From sequence record PZ386974.1: a stretch of DNA of 64,000 nt, one strand, 5' to 3'. Both the position numbers and the translations under genes were made by a program. The DNA is from a phage. Shown here in pieces: positions 3,498-62,504 of the stretch (position 1 is the first letter of the stretch; each line of letters begins with the position of its first letter). The notes below the pieces were generated by a model. That model searched no databases, was not told the origin of the DNA, and saw only the letters and a list, made by a program, of their open reading frames with translations.

Positions 3498-3944
3498 TTA
3501 GTAACTCTGCAGAATGAATTTGAAATTATCTGCCAGAAGACGGTTCATTTCAGTGAGTGTTTGATATTCTGATGTATGGTTGCGAGTGAATGCCAGAGCC
3601 AATTGTCCTTTACCATAACCAGTAGTCAGTGGTTTCATGTTCTTAGCTGCAACAAAGATTACATCATATTCAATATTGTTAGTGCCCATGGTACGGGCTA
3701 GTTGCGAACGGCCTTGACGAATGTGAGAAAGAATTGCATCCAACCCTTGTTTAGAACGTTGACGTCCTACAAAGAATCGTGCTGCTACTTGTCGCCAATC
3801 AGATGAACCTTTAACAAAGAAGTAAAAACCTTCGCGAGAACGAAACTCTTTAGAAACTTCAGAACCGTATTCGCCATTACGAACTACTGCAACAACTTCA
3901 CCACCAACTGCCAGAAGGTCTTTACGAGTTAAATATTTGGACAT
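3498..3944 (-). CDS. ndd: possible Ndd nucleoid-disruption protein (148 aa)
   Basis: Size and position (clockwise of 52) match T4 ndd; ATG with GAGGAA SD; identity not verified by alignment. Confidence 0.4.
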
Positions 3945-6569: not shown

Positions 6570-8783
6570 TTATTTGGCCGCTTCCACGGCCTTCATGAAT
6601 TTAACGATTTGAGCGACCTGTTCTTTAGAAAGAGTACCACGTCGTCCCATGTATTCTGACACAATATGATAATTGGTTTCAAATTCAATAACCATTTTAT
6701 CATCATTATCGTAAGCATTATCTTTAAGCTTATCGAAAATTTTAGCACACAATTCTAACTTCTTATTCAGATCTCTGTTAGTAGCACCTGAGAATCGATT
6801 CCATCCCCAACGATTATTTACTGTTGAAAGTTTTGCAAAATCTTTACTGATTTCTTTGTTCTTAGAGCTAAAATACTTACTAAGGAAGTTGAGCTCTTCA
6901 TTACGAGTAATATGATTCAAATAAGGCTGTGCTCTACGACTTGGTGATACATACTCATCATAATCTACTTTATCGATTAGCATAATATAGTCATTAATTG
7001 ATTTTTCAAACAAACATTCTACTTCACCAAGTTTACGAACTTTCTTAGCAATCTGTGGACGGACTACAGTGAACTCTTTAATACCTGACAAATCAGCAAT
7101 ACGGGTCAAGAAATTGGAGTCATAGTTCAACCAACCTTTATCTGCGTCAAGACATTCAGCATTAGAACGATTACGAACTATAGCATAACCTTGGATTTCA
7201 TCAGCTTCACTCGCCGGAATAAAGAGATCTTCTGATACCCAAACATCGTTTTCATTCTTAAAGAACCGATGAGCACTCGGGGATTTAGGACGAGGCCCAT
7301 TAGAACGAGTCTTGACTTCAATCCATGGCTTAACGATTTGTAAAAGCTCTGAAGTCTTGTACATGTTAATGTTGTCGCCATCAAAGATAACTTTAAGGCG
7401 TTCCAGAAGTTTCATTGCGTCTTCGTCTGTAGGGTCAACGAATAGTACGCTTTTACCAAAACCACGTGGGACTTTACCGGTTAATTTAACCTCGTCTTTA
7501 GACATTTCAATTGAATTAAGAGCTCGCATTAATGGAACACGTCCCTTAACGTCATCAATAACAATTTCAACGTTTTTAATGTTAATGCCAATCAGACTGT
7601 TAATTGAAATAGTTGCAGATGAGCTACCACTTTCACGAATACGACGAAGACGAGGGTCTTCAATGATATCGTATACGACGCCGAGATTACACCATTCGGG
7701 TCCCATTTTAAAACGTTTGTACAACTCAGAATAAGTTAGTTGTTCTTTAGAATATTTCAGAGATTCAATATTAGACCCAGCCTTTTCCATGTATTTGCGA
7801 GCGGTATAGCCAAGAGAATCAATTTCACGGAACACATGGCGCGGGTATTTACAATCAATCCATTTCTTAGAATCTTCAGCGAACAATTTAGCATCGATTT
7901 CTGCAACGCGTTTATGGATATTTGCTACTGTACGTTTATCAAATGACAATGCTTCACGAGACGGGGCTACATCTAGTTCACCCATAGGGAATTTAATATA
8001 AGCTGTAGTGCATCGCGTCATCATCCATGTTTGTTCTTTAATAACACTTCCGATTGGATATACAATACCACCATAAACAGCCATGATATTACCACGTTCA
8101 CCCCATGGAGCTTCCTTGGCCAAATATACATCGTCAAATTCAGGGAAGTATTTGATATCTTTAACACCGCGAACTTCTGCAATATCACCTAGAGGACGCA
8201 TAACATATGCAATTTCAGATGCGAACTTTTCAAAATCTTCTGGGTTAACCGGTACAACTACTTCTACACCCGTACGGTCATCAGGGCCCATCTTATCTAC
8301 GAAGGTTGGCTTAATCTGTGGACCACTGTCATCTTGATAAATTACATAACCACGAACTTCACCGTTGTGATAAGATGTAAGGTTAAACGTATCGGTATAT
8401 GCTAGTGGAGCTTTAGAGCCGAGTCCGAATCCACCAATGAAATCGTTACTCGATGTTTTAGTTGAAGCAAAATATGAGTTATAGATTCCTGGCTCTTCGT
8501 CATTACCTCGAATGGTGAAATCACTCATACCAGGACCAAAGTCTCGAACTACAAAACGCGGGTCTAAACGACCTGGAGCCTGAACAATAAACTTATCAGT
8601 GCAACCATTAAGAATTTGTCCATCGATACAGTTTGTGATTAATTCACGTACACAAGCCAATTCTTTGTTTGTATAAAGGTCATTAGACAAAATCTTATAA
8701 ACTTTGCTATTGCCTTGAATAGTAAATGCTGTGCTCTTACCGCCTGAACCAATAATCGTTTCTTTAGCCGTTTCAATAATCAT
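6570..8783 (-). CDS. rIIA: rIIA protein
   Basis: 737 aa; N-terminal region with DLYTNK...RELITN...PGRLDPRFV...DFGPGMS matches recalled T4 rIIA. Confidence 0.85.
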   Translation of the reverse strand: MIIETAKETIIGSGGKSTAFTIQGNSKVYKILSNDLYTNKELACVRELITNCIDGQILNGCTDKFIVQAPGRLDPRFVVRDFGPGMSDFTIRGNDEEPGIYNSYFASTKTSSNDFIGGFGLGSKAPLAYTDTFNLTSYHNGEVRGYVIYQDDSGPQIKPTFVDKMGPDDRTGVEVVVPVNPEDFEKFASEIAYVMRPLGDIAEVRGVKDIKYFPEFDDVYLAKEAPWGERGNIMAVYGGIVYPIGSVIKEQTWMMTRCTTAYIKFPMGELDVAPSREALSFDKRTVANIHKRVAEIDAKLFAEDSKKWIDCKYPRHVFREIDSLGYTARKYMEKAGSNIESLKYSKEQLTYSELYKRFKMGPEWCNLGVVYDIIEDPRLRRIRESGSSSATISINSLIGINIKNVEIVIDDVKGRVPLMRALNSIEMSKDEVKLTGKVPRGFGKSVLFVDPTDEDAMKLLERLKVIFDGDNINMYKTSELLQIVKPWIEVKTRSNGPRPKSPSAHRFFKNENDVWVSEDLFIPASEADEIQGYAIVRNRSNAECLDADKGWLNYDSNFLTRIADLSGIKEFTVVRPQIAKKVRKLGEVECLFEKSINDYIMLIDKVDYDEYVSPSRRAQPYLNHITRNEELNFLSKYFSSKNKEISKDFAKLSTVNNRWGWNRFSGATNRDLNKKLELCAKIFDKLKDNAYDNDDKMVIEFETNYHIVSEYMGRRGTLSKEQVAQIVKFMKAVEAAK

Positions 8784-15515: not shown

Positions 15516-16193
15516 TTATCGCTGTTTTACACTTAACGGGTCAGGATTCTCAGGGACATCTTCAAGGCCAAGCGCATAACGCTGAGCATATTTTAACATC
15601 AAAATATCTTTAGCACAATCATGAATACTATCATGAGCAACGAATCCTTTTAGCGTACCCATCGGTAATGGACACATACTTAATCCTCGTGTCAACGAGT
15701 AAGCTTCGATTGCCGTACGAATATCACGTTGAGCCCAGAATTTAACCGGTTCTAATTTATCAGTATCAATCTCTGGTTCAAGAACACCTTCATCACGATA
15801 GAGGTCACGAATCAAATCGACCAAGATCGGGAAGTCAAAGCTCATACCGCGGCACCACATCTGTGATTTCCATTGGTCAACTTTATTAGCTCGACAATAA
15901 TCTAAAAAGATTTTAATGCCTTCAAGCGTAGTGACATCGTCTTCAGACGGAGCCAAGTTTTTACGCGCTTCAGCCGATTGTTCTTTCCACCATTTCATAG
16001 TGGATTTAGCGAAAACTCGCTTCCCTTTCTGAGAAGCTAAATTAAATTTAATTCGCTTACCTCGTTGAACAAGTTCTTCAAATGATTCAACAACTTCAGG
16101 GTCGGAATTATATGCAATAACCGCAAGGTCAATAACAGCCGCTTTTGATGTATTGCCGAATGTTTCAAAATCTATAATAACATCAGTGCTCAT
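15516..16193 (-). CDS. dexA: exonuclease A (DEDD-type)
   Basis: 225 aa; N-terminal DFETFG exonuclease motif; adjacent to dda as in T4. Confidence 0.75.
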   Translation of the reverse strand: MSTDVIIDFETFGNTSKAAVIDLAVIAYNSDPEVVESFEELVQRGKRIKFNLASQKGKRVFAKSTMKWWKEQSAEARKNLAPSEDDVTTLEGIKIFLDYCRANKVDQWKSQMWCRGMSFDFPILVDLIRDLYRDEGVLEPEIDTDKLEPVKFWAQRDIRTAIEAYSLTRGLSMCPLPMGTLKGFVAHDSIHDCAKDILMLKYAQRYALGLEDVPENPDPLSVKQR

Positions 16194-17516: not shown

Positions 17517-17824
17517 CGTAAAGTCCCTGCAATTGGAATACTAACAATACGGCCTGTGTCCAGGATTCGTTGATACAATCTTTGCGTCTCCGCATCTAGT
17601 TTAATGTGTTTCATTTCGAGCTTATTAAACCAGAACTTACGCGGAGTTTCGACCATTCTTAGAACTCCCATTTTTAAATCTGTTTTATACTGTGTTTTCA
17701 AAGTATCGAAAACTTTATCTGCAATATCCTTTCTAAAAAATACTGCAGGACGATGCTCATCAAGTGGAACCGGGACAGTAAATCCTTCCATATCTCGATA
17801 AACTATTGCATATACATAAACCAT
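17513..17824 (-). CDS. hypothetical protein (103 aa; dda.1 position)
   Basis: ATG start overlapping dda stop region. Confidence 0.5.
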   Translation of the reverse strand: MVYVYAIVYRDMEGFTVPVPLDEHRPAVFFRKDIADKVFDTLKTQYKTDLKMGVLRMVETPRKFWFNKLEMKHIKLDAETQRLYQRILDTGRIVSIPIAGTLR

Positions 17825-17826
17825 AA

Positions 17827-18573
17827 TTAACCTTTAATCAGTTGGAATAATGATGCGCTAAGTGGTAGGCCACGTTTCAATTTTAATTTACCAATGAAAC
17901 CAATCTTTTCAAAACGTTGCAGACCTTGGATAACTTTATCATATGTATCGAAAAGCGATTCAGCGTCAGTTAATTTAGTTTTAGTTTTCCAGTCAGAGCC
18001 TTTAAGAAGAACATTGAGTTTAGTAAGTTCATGGCCTTCTGCTTGATGTGAGCCATTAATGCGTGCTTTCAAAGCAACAATTCTAAGTTTAGATTCGTTA
18101 GATAAAGGTTGATTTTTCATCATGTTCGCCATATGCTTAACACGATTTTCACGTTTTGCTCGGATTTTTAAAATAGTGCCATAAACCTTTTTAATTTGGG
18201 CCCATTTCTTCTCGTCGAGATTAAGTTTCTCTACTTTACGGGCAGAAGGATTAGCGATACGTCTTGCAATGGCATCACGTTTCTCAATAAGTTCTTCTAA
18301 TGTTAAATCAGAACGAGCCGTGTTATATTTTTTCTTAACTGGGATGACATTACCTTTAATGTAGCCTATATCATTATTAAAACGTTCTAAGGATAATTTC
18401 TCACCTTCAACAGAGTTATTAAAAGATTCACCTGAGTAAGCGCAGACCTTTTGATCAAGAATGTTTTTAAGGTAATTAAAGTCTAAGTTAAAATCCTTAG
18501 AGCGTCTCTTCGCAGAAGCTCTGGTGTGGTCAAGACGACGATTGATTTTGTTAATTTTATTATTTGATAACAT
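17827..18573 (-). CDS. srd: Srd (sigma-70-like decoy/regulator)
   Basis: 248 aa; N-terminus MLSNNKI.KINRRLDHTRASA matches recalled T4 Srd; position between dda and mod genes. Confidence 0.65.
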   Translation of the reverse strand: MLSNNKINKINRRLDHTRASAKRRSKDFNLDFNYLKNILDQKVCAYSGESFNNSVEGEKLSLERFNNDIGYIKGNVIPVKKKYNTARSDLTLEELIEKRDAIARRIANPSARKVEKLNLDEKKWAQIKKVYGTILKIRAKRENRVKHMANMMKNQPLSNESKLRIVALKARINGSHQAEGHELTKLNVLLKGSDWKTKTKLTDAESLFDTYDKVIQGLQRFEKIGFIGKLKLKRGLPLSASLFQLIKG

Positions 18574-21835: not shown

Positions 21836-22357
21836 TTAGTAACCATTATCCTGGCGTTCAAAGTTGTGTTGGTTTTTCAAGTAGTAAAGTTTAAAGATTT
21901 CTTCAGCAGTAAGACCAAGACCTTGGAACATATTCAGAACAAAGTGGAGGATATCAATCATTTCAAATTTAATTTCAAGCTGGTCTTCAGGAGACAGTTC
22001 ATCGATACGACGATTTCGATATTCAGCATGTTGTGCCTTCCACGGCTTCCATACACTGCTGGCGGCTTTTTCACCATTGCTCATACCACCAAGTGAAGTC
22101 AGCAGTTCACGAAATTCATCATCAATATAATCTTTCTGATTACGCAGCCAATCAACAACATCACCAGCAGTGGCCAATTCATCAGGATGTTTGTTATGTT
22201 CAGGCTTGTCATTTGCCAGACGAACCTGTAAAGATTTCTGCATATCAAGCATTACCTGCAGTGGGTCTTTATCTTCGTGAATCAGAGCATTAAAATAAGC
22301 TTCTTCTGCTTTATCAACACCAGAAATAAGTTGTGAACATTCGTTAAAGTGTGCCAT
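21836..22357 (-). CDS. 56: dCTP pyrophosphatase (MazG-like)
   Basis: Start set to ATG at 22357 (MAHFNEC...) with AAAGGAA SD; matches recalled T4 gp56. Confidence 0.85.
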   Translation of the reverse strand: MAHFNECSQLISGVDKAEEAYFNALIHEDKDPLQVMLDMQKSLQVRLANDKPEHNKHPDELATAGDVVDWLRNQKDYIDDEFRELLTSLGGMSNGEKAASSVWKPWKAQHAEYRNRRIDELSPEDQLEIKFEMIDILHFVLNMFQGLGLTAEEIFKLYYLKNQHNFERQDNGY

Positions 22358-22445
22358 TATTTTTCCTTTCAATTCAGTATAAGAGAGTTAATTCTAACAT
22401 TAATTTTATAAAGCGTAATAAATAATAGGTAACTAAGGAGATATT

Positions 22446-22643
22446 ATGTTTAAACTTCCATCGTTAATCAACGCTATTAAAGGCAATAAAAAGAAAACTG
22501 CTATCGCTGCAATAGTTGTAGGTGGCATTATTTCATGGAACTTCGGGATTGCACCATTGTTAGTTGCCCATGGTATTATAGTTCCTTCTGTTCCATTGGA
22601 TACTGTAGTTGATTTGGCCTTTGCTATTATAGGGCTTGTTTAA
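22446..22643 (+). CDS. small membrane protein (65 aa), only convincing plus-strand gene
   Basis: ATG with TAAGGAG SD 6 nt upstream; hydrophobic; fills the gap between gp56 start and gp61 stop. Confidence 0.45.
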   Translation: MFKLPSLINAIKGNKKKTAIAAIVVGGIISWNFGIAPLLVAHGIIVPSVPLDTVVDLAFAIIGLV

Positions 22644-23662
22644 ATCTTCGAATAACGAGATAATCTCATTTTAGCATGCAACCCACTTGAAATATTCTGT
22701 TTCATATATTCTAAAATTTCTTGTGGTGTTGCATTTTCTTTCATTACCATATCATTCACATCCTTTGATCTCCATGGAGCTCGATCCCAGAACATGACAC
22801 GTTCGCCTGCATCAACTAATCGCTTCATGCGAGCTATAGTATCCGGATGCCTAGGTTCATTATCCATTACCCATACCCGACGCTCTTTAAATGGTACCAC
22901 ATCTAAATCTATTGAGCCGCCTGTAATAGCGATTGCGTTGGGTATGAATAAACTATCAATAGGACCTTCCATTACCCAGACGTCCCCTTCCTTAACACGT
23001 TCAACACCATAAATTTTTGTTGCAGACTCAAACGCTTTAATAGTGATATATTTCTGAGGAGCATCTTTACGAAGTGCACGTCCTTGGAACGACTCTGCCT
23101 TCCCATCTTTATTAAAAATAGGAATCACTAAACGCGGTTCAGGAATCTCTTTCTTATACGTACCCGGTTGAATCTTGTTGACCAATTTAGGCCATTCTAA
23201 TGTGAACCATAATCTGTTCCATGATTCTTTAGGAATGCATCGAGACTTAACATATTTCACAATAGGATGCTCTTCAGGCAGCTTGTCCAGACGAGAACAA
23301 GACGGCAAAGAATTTATAGTCTTTTTCTCCGGTTCTGGTTTATGTTCAGGAACCTTTTCAATCTTTGGTTCCATTCTAGCTTTTTCTTTACGAACTTCCA
23401 TTAGATACTCACGATAAAGCTCTTCATCATACTCTTTTAAGTATCCGGAAATTGTATTGTGGTATTGACAGTTATAGCAATGTACATTACCAGGAGTACC
23501 GCCATAATACCACCCGCGAGCTTTCATTGCATCTGTCTGGGAGTCGCCACAAACTGGACATCGAAACGTTAATTTAAATGTGCTTGAATTATTGATTTGT
23601 CTAAAACGAGGGAGGTGAGAAAACGCACGATAAGCAAATTCATTATCTATCCATTCAGCCAT
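22640..23662 (-). CDS. 61: DNA primase
   Basis: 340 aa; zinc ribbon CPVCGD...CYNC and Toprim EGPID; matches recalled T4 gp61. Confidence 0.9.
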   Translation of the reverse strand: MAEWIDNEFAYRAFSHLPRFRQINNSSTFKLTFRCPVCGDSQTDAMKARGWYYGGTPGNVHCYNCQYHNTISGYLKEYDEELYREYLMEVRKEKARMEPKIEKVPEHKPEPEKKTINSLPSCSRLDKLPEEHPIVKYVKSRCIPKESWNRLWFTLEWPKLVNKIQPGTYKKEIPEPRLVIPIFNKDGKAESFQGRALRKDAPQKYITIKAFESATKIYGVERVKEGDVWVMEGPIDSLFIPNAIAITGGSIDLDVVPFKERRVWVMDNEPRHPDTIARMKRLVDAGERVMFWDRAPWRSKDVNDMVMKENATPQEILEYMKQNISSGLHAKMRLSRYSKI

Positions 23663-45150: not shown

Positions 45151-46166
45151 TGTGTTGCCTCGATATAAAGTTCGTTGGAATATTTGACCAGCGCTTCTCT
45201 GTCTTCGTCTGAGATATCTGGAATCGCGTCAATATATTCTTTAATGATATCTTGAAGTGATTTAATCTCTATTTCCTGGTCGTCATCAGATTCAACACTG
45301 TTATCAACTTTAGAAACCATACGAAGAGAGTGAACTACTTTTTCAAGTTCAGATTCAAACTTAGTCAACTCTGAATCGATTTCTGATACTATAACACGTA
45401 CGGCTAGATTAGTATAATCAGAATAATTGATTTTGCCTTTAAACGGATAAGTGATTCGTCGATGCCATGTTGTTTCATTAGGAATAAATTCCATACGTTC
45501 AACATCAGTGTCAAATACCCAGAATCCTCGAGGGTCGTTCTCATCGCCTGCAGTAAGGGTCCATGGTGTCCCAATATATTTGACGTTAGCAGCTTCAGAG
45601 ATTGTGTGGAAGTGGCCGGACCAGACTTGTTTATAGGTCTTTAAGAAATCAGGTTCAAGCCCATGAGACTTCATTCCTTTATAGAAATAAAAGCCATTCA
45701 GTTCCCAGTGCCCAACACAATACGCTGCGGAAGAAGTCTTGATGTGCTCTAAGATTTCACCTGTATTTTCTTCACACATCCATGGAACGATATCAATCAG
45801 ACATCCGTCAAAATCTACAGTAGTTGGATGTTCATAAATAGTAAAGTTTTCAAATTGAGTTAACAATTCAGAAACAGTGTTAGGTGTTATTGTATTCTTA
45901 AACGCCATGTCATGGTTTCCTATCGTGACATGAACGTGAATGCCTGCTTTAGAAATCATATCAACGATTTCACGATTGAATTCCATTGTACGATGTGTTA
46001 TTGCTTTACGGACGTCAAACCAATCACCGTACTGAATCCAAGTTTTAATCCCGTGTTTCTTAGAGTATTCAATTGCTTGTCGAATACCATCACGTTGAAT
46101 ATCTTGAACCCATGGGTCGTCTTGTTTGACTCCGATATGGAAGTCGCCTAAGTGCAAAATTTTCAT
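45147..46166 (-). CDS. 47: recombination endonuclease subunit (SbcD/Mre11-like)
   Basis: 339 aa; phosphoesterase motifs (LHLGDFH, GNHD); matches T4 gp47. Confidence 0.9.
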   Translation of the reverse strand: MKILHLGDFHIGVKQDDPWVQDIQRDGIRQAIEYSKKHGIKTWIQYGDWFDVRKAITHRTMEFNREIVDMISKAGIHVHVTIGNHDMAFKNTITPNTVSELLTQFENFTIYEHPTTVDFDGCLIDIVPWMCEENTGEILEHIKTSSAAYCVGHWELNGFYFYKGMKSHGLEPDFLKTYKQVWSGHFHTISEAANVKYIGTPWTLTAGDENDPRGFWVFDTDVERMEFIPNETTWHRRITYPFKGKINYSDYTNLAVRVIVSEIDSELTKFESELEKVVHSLRMVSKVDNSVESDDDQEIEIKSLQDIIKEYIDAIPDISDEDREALVKYSNELYIEATQ

Positions 46167-53935: not shown

Positions 53936-54349
53936 TTAACTTAAACGTCTTTCTAAATATTCAATGTATTCTGCGGCTGCTTGCATCAGGTTACCTTCAT
54001 AGCCGTCGTTATTTTCTTGTCCGGCTAATTTAGCTAATGCATAAGAAATTCGTTCACCTTCGAATTCACCAAGTCCGCCATCACAAACTTCTTGGTCAAT
54101 TTCTTCGAGTTCATCTATTGAATGGGATTCCCAGAAGCACCAAAGAGAAGTATCACGGTCATAGATGCAAAGTTTCTCACCTGTGTTCAACATCACTTCG
54201 ATAATGCCATGGTCGCCATAACCATCTTCGGTAGTAGTACCAATTACCTTGATGATTGTTCCTTTCTTTAATTCAGGAAACTTGACTTGTAGTTCTTCAT
54301 CTTCTTTAACAATCTTGAACCATTTACCGCGAGTTTCAGAAATATTCAT
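53936..54349 (-). CDS. hypothetical acidic protein (137 aa)
   Basis: Track start extended through hydrophobic junk; ATG at 54349. Confidence 0.45.
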   Translation of the reverse strand: MNISETRGKWFKIVKEDEELQVKFPELKKGTIIKVIGTTTEDGYGDHGIIEVMLNTGEKLCIYDRDTSLWCFWESHSIDELEEIDQEVCDGGLGEFEGERISYALAKLAGQENNDGYEGNLMQAAAEYIEYLERRLS

Positions 54350-61483: not shown

Positions 61484-61514
61484 ATTTACCTCAAGTGAAT
61501 GGTTATTTATCTAT

Positions 61515-62504
61515 TTATTTATAGTAAGAATTATGATTTTCGAGATAGACTTGCTCAAGGAAATCATCCCAGAAACTCATATCTACTTTTTGTTGCATAC
61601 CGTTCTTAGCGGCTTGTTCTGATGCTTGTTCAACTTGGTCAACGATATCTTCTAGGAATTCTTGTACAGTTTTAAACGTATGTTTACCAAGCTTAACATC
61701 GAGAATAAATGGAGCATCCTGAAGCGGGTAAACCAGGTCACCGGTTTTGTAAATTTCCAATAATTGAAGTCCACCACGACATGCATGACTCAATGCTTTC
61801 CAGTCAATACCTTCGTTGGCTTCCGCCTTACGAGCACGTTCACCATAGTTCTCTTCCAGTTTAACCAGGATGGCATTGAACTCTTTATTGGTTAACGTGT
61901 CTTGGAATTTACGGTCCAACAGATTATAGAATGTTTGCTTACCTGTTTTCTCGTTTTCGGTTTCAACCCACGAAGCAAATTCACCTACAGGCAGAACATT
62001 CTTCATATGTGATAAACGAATTACTGCACCATTATCAAAGTATTGTCCCCATTCATTAGAACGTTTAAGGGCTTGTCGAAGAACAGCCAGTCGAGAACCC
62101 TTGACACCGTATTTAGAAGCTTGCTTACGGACATACCCTAAATAAGATTTCATGTTAGTGGTATAGAAACGAGACCTGTTATCTTGAATATACTTCCATA
62201 CATCAGGCAAATCAGATTTAACTACTAGACTTTGTGGAGTGTGAAGCATATCTAATGCGACGGTTTCACCATCTGCAGCTAGTTTAAAGAAATATTTGAG
62301 ACTATATAACTCATGGTCCACGTCGTCTTTTGTGTTCTTAGAAGATGTGTTATTCGTGTTCTTGCTCATATGTTCTTTAACGTTACCGGTCAAGATATCA
62401 CGAGCATGAGGGACATAAATTTCTTTAAAATCAACGTCAGATTCTGGGGTAGACGTTCCATAAAGGTGGCTACCAAAGTAGCCTTTCATAATTGTTTTCA
62501 TCAT
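61515..62504 (-). CDS. Pol-beta superfamily nucleotidyltransferase-like protein (329 aa)
   Basis: N-terminal GSHLYGTSTPESDVDF (G-S-x9-D-x-D) motif. Confidence 0.55.
   Translation of the reverse strand: MMKTIMKGYFGSHLYGTSTPESDVDFKEIYVPHARDILTGNVKEHMSKNTNNTSSKNTKDDVDHELYSLKYFFKLAADGETVALDMLHTPQSLVVKSDLPDVWKYIQDNRSRFYTTNMKSYLGYVRKQASKYGVKGSRLAVLRQALKRSNEWGQYFDNGAVIRLSHMKNVLPVGEFASWVETENEKTGKQTFYNLLDRKFQDTLTNKEFNAILVKLEENYGERARKAEANEGIDWKALSHACRGGLQLLEIYKTGDLVYPLQDAPFILDVKLGKHTFKTVQEFLEDIVDQVEQASEQAAKNGMQQKVDMSFWDDFLEQVYLENHNSYYK

Follow-up and report, generated by a model that had tools for sequence, protein, structure and literature searches.

A 65-amino-acid open reading frame (ORF) located on the plus strand between genes 56 and 61 of a T4-type phage is almost certainly a genuine protein-coding gene that is conserved across the Tevenvirinae. 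The best explanation for the data as a whole is that this gene encodes a late inner-membrane protein that serves as a holin-like accessory, a view that we hold tentatively and with confidence just short of even. The gene is not new, since it is present in public annotation as a hypothetical protein and belongs to a PHROG with no assigned function. What is new here is the conserved late-promoter motif, the Tevenvirinae-limited distribution of the gene, its omission from the T4 reference annotation, and the homology of its product to a holin-like family.

The window (the whole 64-kb stretch of DNA that was analysed) derives from a Mosigvirus, which is a T4-type phage similar to RB69, HX01, and JS09. 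The 1.9 kb around the ORF are 98% identical to many such genomes. The ORF and its immediate surroundings contain the following features.

21836 to 22357, minus strand: gene 56, encoding a dCTPase-type pyrophosphatase
22383 to 22423, minus strand: predicted MotA-type middle promoter of gene 56, obtained by mapping RB69 promoter Pm:16038 onto the window
22417 to 22424, plus strand: AATAAATA, a candidate T4-type late (gp55) promoter motif of the A(-13) variant, which ends 21 nt before the ATG
22434 to 22440, plus strand: Shine-Dalgarno sequence TAAGGAG, 5 nt ahead of the ATG of the ORF
22446 to 22643, plus strand: the ORF, with an ATG start and the 65-aa product MFKLPSLINAIKGNKKKTAIAAIVVGGIISWNFGIAPLLVAHGIIVPSVPLDTVVDLAFAIIGLV; orthologue of RB69ORF029w and of dam.1 of T4T, assigned to phrog_2024
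22640 to 22643: TTAA, which holds two overlapping stop codons, the TAA of the ORF (plus strand) and the TAA of gene 61 (minus strand)
22640 to 23662, minus strand: gene 61, encoding a primase of 340 aa
22676 to 22734, plus strand: long hairpin (inverted repeat) in the 3' end of gene 61, followed by AUUUUCUUUC; MFE -20.7, z -2.8, uncertain

This arrangement agrees with a preliminary description of the locus, in which a hydrophobic 65-aa ORF preceded by TAAGGAG was reported to run antiparallel to every neighbour, to occupy the space between the start of gene 56 and the stop of gene 61, and to overlap that stop with its own. Both stops indeed share the TTAA at 22640-22643. The gap between genes 56 and 61 measures 282 nt and is mostly ORF, with the other 88 nt serving as promoter space. 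Elsewhere, 90% of the 64-kb window is tiled by 97 minus-strand ORFs, and the frame at 22446-22643 is the sole plus-strand ORF of at least 60 aa in a gap of this tiling. The earlier observation that this is the only plus-strand gene is therefore confirmed for the window, where the remaining plus-strand gap ORFs are 25-50 aa in length and unsupported. The RefSeq record of HX01 (L001) also calls tiny plus-strand CDSs of 25-37 aa, which find no comparative support in the window. In the same record, small ORFs (1391-1570, 6910-7278, 7339-7551, and 3550-3627) carry implausible product names such as 'molybdenum ABC transporter' (59 aa), 'iduronate sulfatase', and 'DNA polymerase' (70 aa).

The window protein matches phrog_2024, whose function is unannotated, over its full length (E=1.9e-27, residues 1-65 versus positions 1-65 of the 65-position model), and this profile is matched by 22 of 22 diverse family members. 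In the RB69 record the gene is named RB69ORF029w (NP_861719) and occupies the same strand and position at the gene 61 stop; its product differs from the window protein by a single amino acid. T4 carries a copy at the same place (T4 17738-17938, plus strand, equivalent to L002 3739-3939) that encodes a 66-aa protein 54% identical to the window protein and that is preceded by a ribosome-binding site and the motif GATAAATA. This copy is named dam.1 in the T4T record (HM137666), and a Pyrodigal-annotated T4 record calls it as well. It is unannotated in the reference T4 record NC_000866, in which the 309-nt gap between dam and gene 61 carries no annotated feature. Scans with Pfam and NCBIfam models gave no credible family for the window protein or for its T4, Gaprivervirus, and Karamvirus orthologues. 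A literature search recovered no paper naming RB69ORF029w or dam.1, and no transcript, protein, or phenotype data for the gene.

Comparative data support the coding nature of the ORF. Some 700 phage records contain it, and in 692 of 699 a single aligned piece spans 80% or more of the query; the frame is intact in about 99% of these ~700 genomes. Between the window and RB69 there are six synonymous differences and one non-synonymous difference. Between genera, pS is about 0.5-0.8, where synonymous sites approach saturation, and pN is about 0.35-0.5. The corresponding omega values are mostly 0.15-0.55, with a value of 1.0 for T4-CkP1, which is a saturated pair. In the family alignment, W31, P37, and G43 are invariant, and N32 and P47 are nearly so. 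These patterns of substitution indicate that the ORF protein is under purifying selection.

Two individual copies are disrupted. In T4_ev240 (Tequatrovirus, L010 1430-1608), which is without dam and segF, a one-base deletion in an A-run leaves only the last 41 codons of the ORF, and the copy of ERS-1 (H98) aligns to the ORF as two pieces. These copies are either rare natural knockouts or sequencing errors. Unless it reflects a homopolymer sequencing error, the T4_ev240 frameshift suggests that the phage can do without the gene in the laboratory. An unusual 61-aa family member in the representative library (P0079) resembles the T4 protein except that Ala is systematically replaced by Val, Thr by Ile, and Pro by Leu. 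Such changes fit C-to-T converted reads (e.g., bisulfite-treated) in the contig, and this entry is therefore probably a database artefact.

A gene of this family is found at this position and in this orientation in 10 of 10 sampled Tevenvirinae genera. Nine genera were established by reading the locus, and the tenth, Slopekvirus, by a database match only, from phage Potts1, which we take to be a Slopekvirus. The plus-strand gene lies beside gene 61 in T4 (Tequatrovirus), in the window, HX01, and RB69 (Mosigvirus), and in CkP1 (Karamvirus), Merlin (Moonvirus), S16 (Gelderlandvirus), and KLB31 (Kanagawavirus). On the same strand, it is near gene 61 in EAWsc9, TH41, and CJ20 (Gaprivervirus) and in PKO111 (Jiaodavirus), and against or near the gene 61 stop in IME08 (Dhakavirus). 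This position is kept across the ten genera at 20-55% identity, and metagenomic T4-like contigs also hold the gene, with identity of just 20-30%. Conservation in relatives was one of the checks proposed in the preliminary description. The ORF is absent in Tulanevirus, Lazarusvirus, Bragavirus, Pseudotevenvirus, and Krischvirus (one representative per genus), all of which are Straboviridae outside the Tevenvirinae. These five representatives have no room for the ORF because a same-strand gene directly follows gene 61.

The borders of the gene are more variable than its position. The 4-nt stop overlap is annotated in the window, HX01, RB69, T4, CkP1, Merlin, S16, KLB31, and metagenomic relatives. 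It is missing in Gaprivervirus, PKO111, the metagenomic contig that encodes P0080, and Yersinia phage P8. The spacer between the ORF and gene 61 is 118 nt long in Gaprivervirus and 17-18 nt long in PKO111 and the P0080 contig, and in Yersinia phage P8 a homing endonuclease gene is inserted between the two genes (L009 1709-2547). On the gene 56 side, the ORF is flanked by dam in T4 (L002 2847-3626) and by mobE in IME08 (L024 755-1411); T4 segF is located beyond gene 56. Both flanks are insertion hot-spots, and therefore the ORF behaves as an independent unit. Antisense-coupled expression, which had been raised in the preliminary description, is not required, given that the stop-stop overlap is lost in the four cases named above.

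The reversed orientation of the ORF had been taken to imply a separate promoter, and this expectation is supported by the candidate promoter AATAAATA, which matches TATAAATA at 7 of 8 positions with one mismatch. All 12 lineages have a motif of the form N[A/T]TAAATA that starts 20-29 nt ahead of the ATG, amid neighbouring sequence that has diverged. The motif reads AATAAATA in the window and PKO111, GATAAATA in T4, CATAAATA in Gaprivervirus, Kanagawavirus, and three metagenomic relatives, and ATTAAATA in Karam-, Moon-, and Gelderlandvirus. Only IME08 has the perfect TATAAATA, and the motif is imperfect in 11 of the 12 lineages. A Shine-Dalgarno core (AGGAG or GGAGG) is found in all 12. The search for an exact TATAAATA upstream of the ORF, which had been suggested as a check, came out negative, with the one-mismatch AATAAATA there instead. 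The exact sequence has just two occurrences in the window, both on the minus strand and neither upstream of the ORF.

The shorter sequence ATAAATA occurs seven times in 128 kb (both strands of the window), which is equivalent to 5.5e-5 per nt. On the minus strand, such sites precede soc, gene 49, and a 93-aa gene of phrog_2243 that is probably rI. Both soc and gene 49 are late-transcribed in T4. Two of these minus-strand sites are as follows.

53936 to 53943, minus strand: AATAAATA, again the A(-13) variant, ahead of gene 49 (endonuclease VII)
61510 to 61523, minus strand: TATAAATAAATAGATAAATA cluster, ahead of the 93-aa phrog_2243 gene

An orphan CATAAATA is also located at 45833-45840 on the plus strand, inside the gene-47 homologue.

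Variation of this kind has precedent in T4, for which 32 of 50 listed late promoters are perfect, nine have A at -13, and one exception carries a TA-to-AT change (Geiduschek and Kassavetis, PMC2988020). The A(-13) form is the commonest variant among T4 late promoters (PMC2988020), and the -13 position is poorly conserved in late promoters (Nolan et al. 2006, PMC1524935). The hidden Markov model used by Nolan et al. predicted 31 RB69 late promoters, and the site upstream of the ORF is not among them (PMC1524935).

Early and middle transcripts of T4 all run counter-clockwise, and late transcripts run in either direction (PMC2988020). No sigma-70-type plus-strand promoter was found near the ORF. 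These two observations make late transcription from its own promoter the best reading of the locus, and the presence of the motif in every lineage points the same way, as the preliminary description had considered possible. Judged from sequence, the ORF is probably transcribed late from AATAAATA by gp55-RNA polymerase, with a transcription start predicted near 22430. The resulting late transcript would have a leader of about 16 nt that carries a strong ribosome-binding site.

The same spacer appears to serve gene 56. In RB69, Pm:16038 spans 15998-16038 on the minus strand with a score of 21.6 (Nolan et al. 2006 Additional file 4, PMC1524935). Window coordinates equal RB69 coordinates plus 6385, and the upstream sequence is identical in both phages. 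The predicted middle promoter of gene 56 is thus placed back-to-back with the late motif, with an overlap of a few bases. Because Pm:16038 abuts the late motif in this manner, the 88-nt spacer would carry two divergent promoters. Annotation of T4 assigns the gene-56 transcript as primer RNA for the replication origin oriA, and by analogy the 88-nt spacer may be an oriA-equivalent region.

The search for a canonical terminator near the ORF in the window was negative. Lineages with overlapping stops have a long inverted repeat located 35-95 nt inside the 3' end of gene 61. Such a hairpin occupies the last ~100 nt of gene 61 in most Tevenvirinae lineages (loci L002, L006, L022, L023, L025, L011, and L014). 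Hairpins comparable to that of the window are present in T4, KLB31, CkP1, Merlin, S16, and two metagenomic relatives, in registers that differ, and there is no comparable gene 61 hairpin in IME08. The z-scores of these hairpins are often better on the plus strand than on the minus strand. Gaprivervirus has two terminator-like intergenic hairpins, the second with a U-run, and PKO111 and the P0080 contig each have a GC-rich hairpin within the 17-18-nt spacer. The gene 61 hairpin may form the 3' end of the plus-strand transcript, or it may be another RNA or DNA element. RNAalifold analysis of nine lineages revealed no common structure downstream of the ORF. Given this result and the different registers of the hairpins, we do not claim a conserved downstream RNA element.

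The sequence of the ORF protein is that of a small membrane protein. For RB69ORF029w, one transmembrane segment was predicted at residues 21-41 (Nolan et al. 2006, PMC1524935). An AlphaFold2 model generated from the family alignment (mean pLDDT 81.5) has helices at residues 3-11, 15-41, and 51-64. The hydrophobic core is preceded by five K/R residues, and the segment on its C-terminal side is neutral to acidic. By the positive-inside rule, the K/R residues on the N-terminal side place the N-terminus in the cytoplasm. On the strength of these predictions, the product is likely to be a 65-residue inner-membrane protein with one span and its N-terminus inside. A basic, amphipathic N-terminal helix would lie in the cytoplasm and would be followed by a long transmembrane helix of about residues 15-41. 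A proline-rich turn (P-x-x-P-L-D/E) would then lie in the periplasm and lead into a 14-residue hydrophobic C-terminal helix.

An invariant W-N pair is positioned about two-thirds along the transmembrane helix and is followed by P37, with the helix end at G43. Conserved Asn residues within transmembrane helices are well known to drive the association of helices, and the ORF protein might oligomerise in the membrane via its polar Asn. The C-terminus (...DLAFAIIGLV) has a net charge of 0 to -2 and a hydrophobic end throughout the family. A Foldseek search of the AlphaFold2 model against viral structures returned family members only.

More distant relatives were recovered only by sensitive searching. 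Word-indexed homologue searches returned only proteins of 41-73 aa (mostly 60-69 aa), largely from T4-like contigs, and no bridge to any protein with a Pfam annotation. An exhaustive profile search of 1.84 billion representative proteins gave 11 matches, mostly from T4-like contigs, of which two (P0082 and P0084) come from contigs that are not T4-like. A related-locus search with P0084 found no relatives. Relatives of P0082 that are 64-93% identical to it occur in seven IMG/VR contigs (siphophage contigs L027-L033). The frame of this group encodes 91-97 aa when read from the ATG that gives an amphipathic N-terminal helix like that of the window protein ('LINAIKGNKKK'), and for the L029 ORF of the group a start further upstream is also possible. 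When the T4-like-only alignment was compared with the 91-97-aa group by hhalign, the probability was 97.6% (E=3.6e-12, 44 columns). This score makes a solid case for homology of the transmembrane and C-terminal module, and very probably the ORF protein is a shortened relative of this lysozyme-linked family of 91-97 aa.

The seven non-T4 loci have the same core gene order in 7 of 7 cases: tail tip, XhlA-like membrane/coiled-coil protein, Phage_lysozyme (opposite strand), p188, and the holin-like gene. A SegE-like endonuclease gene and p103 are variable inserts, each present in 5 of the 7 loci, and the holin-like gene is two to three genes from the Phage_lysozyme gene. Downstream of the non-T4 homologues, the cargo differs. 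One contig encodes a 352-aa RelA_SpoT-domain protein (L013 325-1383), which is possibly a toxic alarmone synthetase, and other contigs encode a 256-aa membrane protein downstream of the holin-like gene (L031 4228-4998).

Several matches connect these proteins to holins. A 92-aa relative matches PF11351 (GTA_holin_3TM) with E=7e-4 and 20.5 bits, which is below the gathering score of 24.8. P0082 and P0083 match the same C-terminal part of PF11351 (E=0.03 and 0.1), and distant family members score 13.6-15.3 bits against this model, likewise below threshold. P0082 also matches holin family phrog_3427 with E=5e-4, below the curated threshold, and a 'GTA-like holin' of cyanophage Pan1, itself sub-threshold for PF11351, matches the ORF family with 65% probability. 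The holin connection is therefore a tentative one, made up of several independent weak matches, all below curated thresholds, together with a suggestive gene context. We judge the chances that the 91-97-aa family belongs to the GTA-holin superfamily to be even. Database 'holin' labels (EAWsc9; the UniRef name for OE5505) were given no weight, as no curated model stands behind them.

If the ORF protein is a holin-like accessory, it would act late, for instance by changing the timing or manner of T-holin triggering, and it would not be the main holin. The genes t, e, rI, and rIII and the spanins account genetically for lysis in T4, and no lysis occurs in t mutants. The ORF protein is therefore not a self-sufficient holin. 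A role for it in late lysis timing in T4-like phages is the reading that we prefer, but it is speculative and less likely than not. More specifically, one could propose that T-even-type phages, including T4, possess a second holin-family gene, minimal, late, and clockwise within the early region, that tunes T-holin triggering or lysis inhibition. We regard this proposal as a long shot.

An alternative that deserves serious weight, even if we place it well under an even chance, is that the gene encodes a real late membrane protein unrelated to lysis. Such a protein might block superinfection at a late stage of the cycle, protect against a host abortive-infection system that acts on the membrane, or participate in membrane-associated assembly, and its resemblance to holins would reflect a shared transmembrane module only. 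The evidence for a conserved, late, membrane-inserted protein fits this possibility equally well, and the holin matches are sub-threshold. In addition, T4-like phages are rich in such small membrane proteins, with Imm and Sp encoded a few genes away; in these phages the gene is not beside an endolysin or holin gene; and the neighbours downstream of the non-T4 homologues (the RelA_SpoT protein or the 256-aa membrane protein) vary. However, Imm and Sp are early proteins encoded on the other strand, whereas the ORF has a late motif. Moreover, the sole family-level similarities found point to holins, and the larger homologues are close to lysozyme in 7 of 7 loci.

The remaining alternatives deny the protein a leading role. 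The RNA could be the main product, such that a late plus-strand transcript antisense to gene 61 silences or destabilises primase and early mRNA and the ORF is secondary. The convergent layout with overlapping stops and the lack of a canonical terminator after the ORF in the window suit this possibility, and both strands of T4 DNA are transcribed at different times at several sites (PMC2988020). We nevertheless consider it improbable, since conservation extends to the protein but not to the overlap with gene 61. Synonymous drift accompanies an amino acid sequence whose invariant residues are retained even at 20-30% identity, every lineage has a strong ribosome-binding site, and gene 61 is separated from the ORF by terminator-like hairpins in Gaprivervirus and by the homing-endonuclease gene in Yersinia phage P8. 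Finally, a frame this short and hydrophobic, unannotated in the reference T4 record and with no experimental evidence found, might be a chance ORF in an AT-rich promoter region that is no gene. The near-universal integrity of the frame, the retention of its position in ten genera, the synonymous excess, and the conservation of both ribosome-binding site and promoter motif effectively refute this explanation, leaving it a very small probability. Our preferred reading as a whole is still that of a real late gene for an inner-membrane protein with a holin-like accessory function.

Few genomes have been annotated as thoroughly as that of T4, whose lysis and lysis-inhibition system serves as a textbook model. 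The gene described here is near-universal in the sampled Tevenvirinae, is apparently late, and encodes a membrane protein, yet it has been omitted from the T4 reference record. Should the gene affect lysis timing, a pathway regarded as complete would gain a component. Even otherwise, the gene is the sole clockwise gene of the early region within the window and a clean case of a putative late promoter situated back-to-back with a middle promoter. These characteristics argue for placing the gene into the T4 reference annotation. The finding is a tidy but modest lead in a model phage and is no surprise.

Comparison with known systems begins with PF11351, which comprises the holin of the Rhodobacter gene transfer agent and related phage holins. 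The ORF family is collinear with the C-terminal part of this model, and the likeness includes basic residues, a transmembrane helix with the pattern W-N/R-F/Y ... P ... A ... G, a PP-x-L-D/E turn, and a short hydrophobic helix. The alignment of distant members and of the 92-aa relatives covers model positions 39-117 of 123. In contrast to PF11351 proteins, the T4-type protein is half as long and has one clear transmembrane helix rather than three, plus the 14-residue hydrophobic helix. Scores remain under the PF11351 threshold of 24.8 bits, and the window protein gives no match. With holins in general, the ORF protein shares its small size and the presence of at least one transmembrane helix. 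It differs from them by its lack of a hydrophilic, highly charged C-terminal tail and of adjacency to an endolysin gene or lysis cassette, with the T4-like gene located between genes 56 and 61.

Imm (superinfection immunity) and Sp (spackle) are exclusion proteins of T4 that are encoded by early genes on the other strand. Like the ORF product, they are small envelope proteins encoded in the same region, only a few genes away. Unlike the ORF, their genes are on the minus strand (the early/middle strand in T4) and belong to different families. The T4 holin T and the antiholins RI and RIII are membrane-active players in T4-type phages for which no sequence similarity to the ORF protein was found, and their genes are located elsewhere in the genome. 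T is expressed late and includes a large domain in the periplasm, RI is secreted as a signal-anchor-release protein, and RIII resides in the cytoplasm. The RI-like gene of the window also lies behind a TATAAATA motif. Among these systems, that of T, RI, and RIII is the one that the ORF protein would most plausibly modulate.
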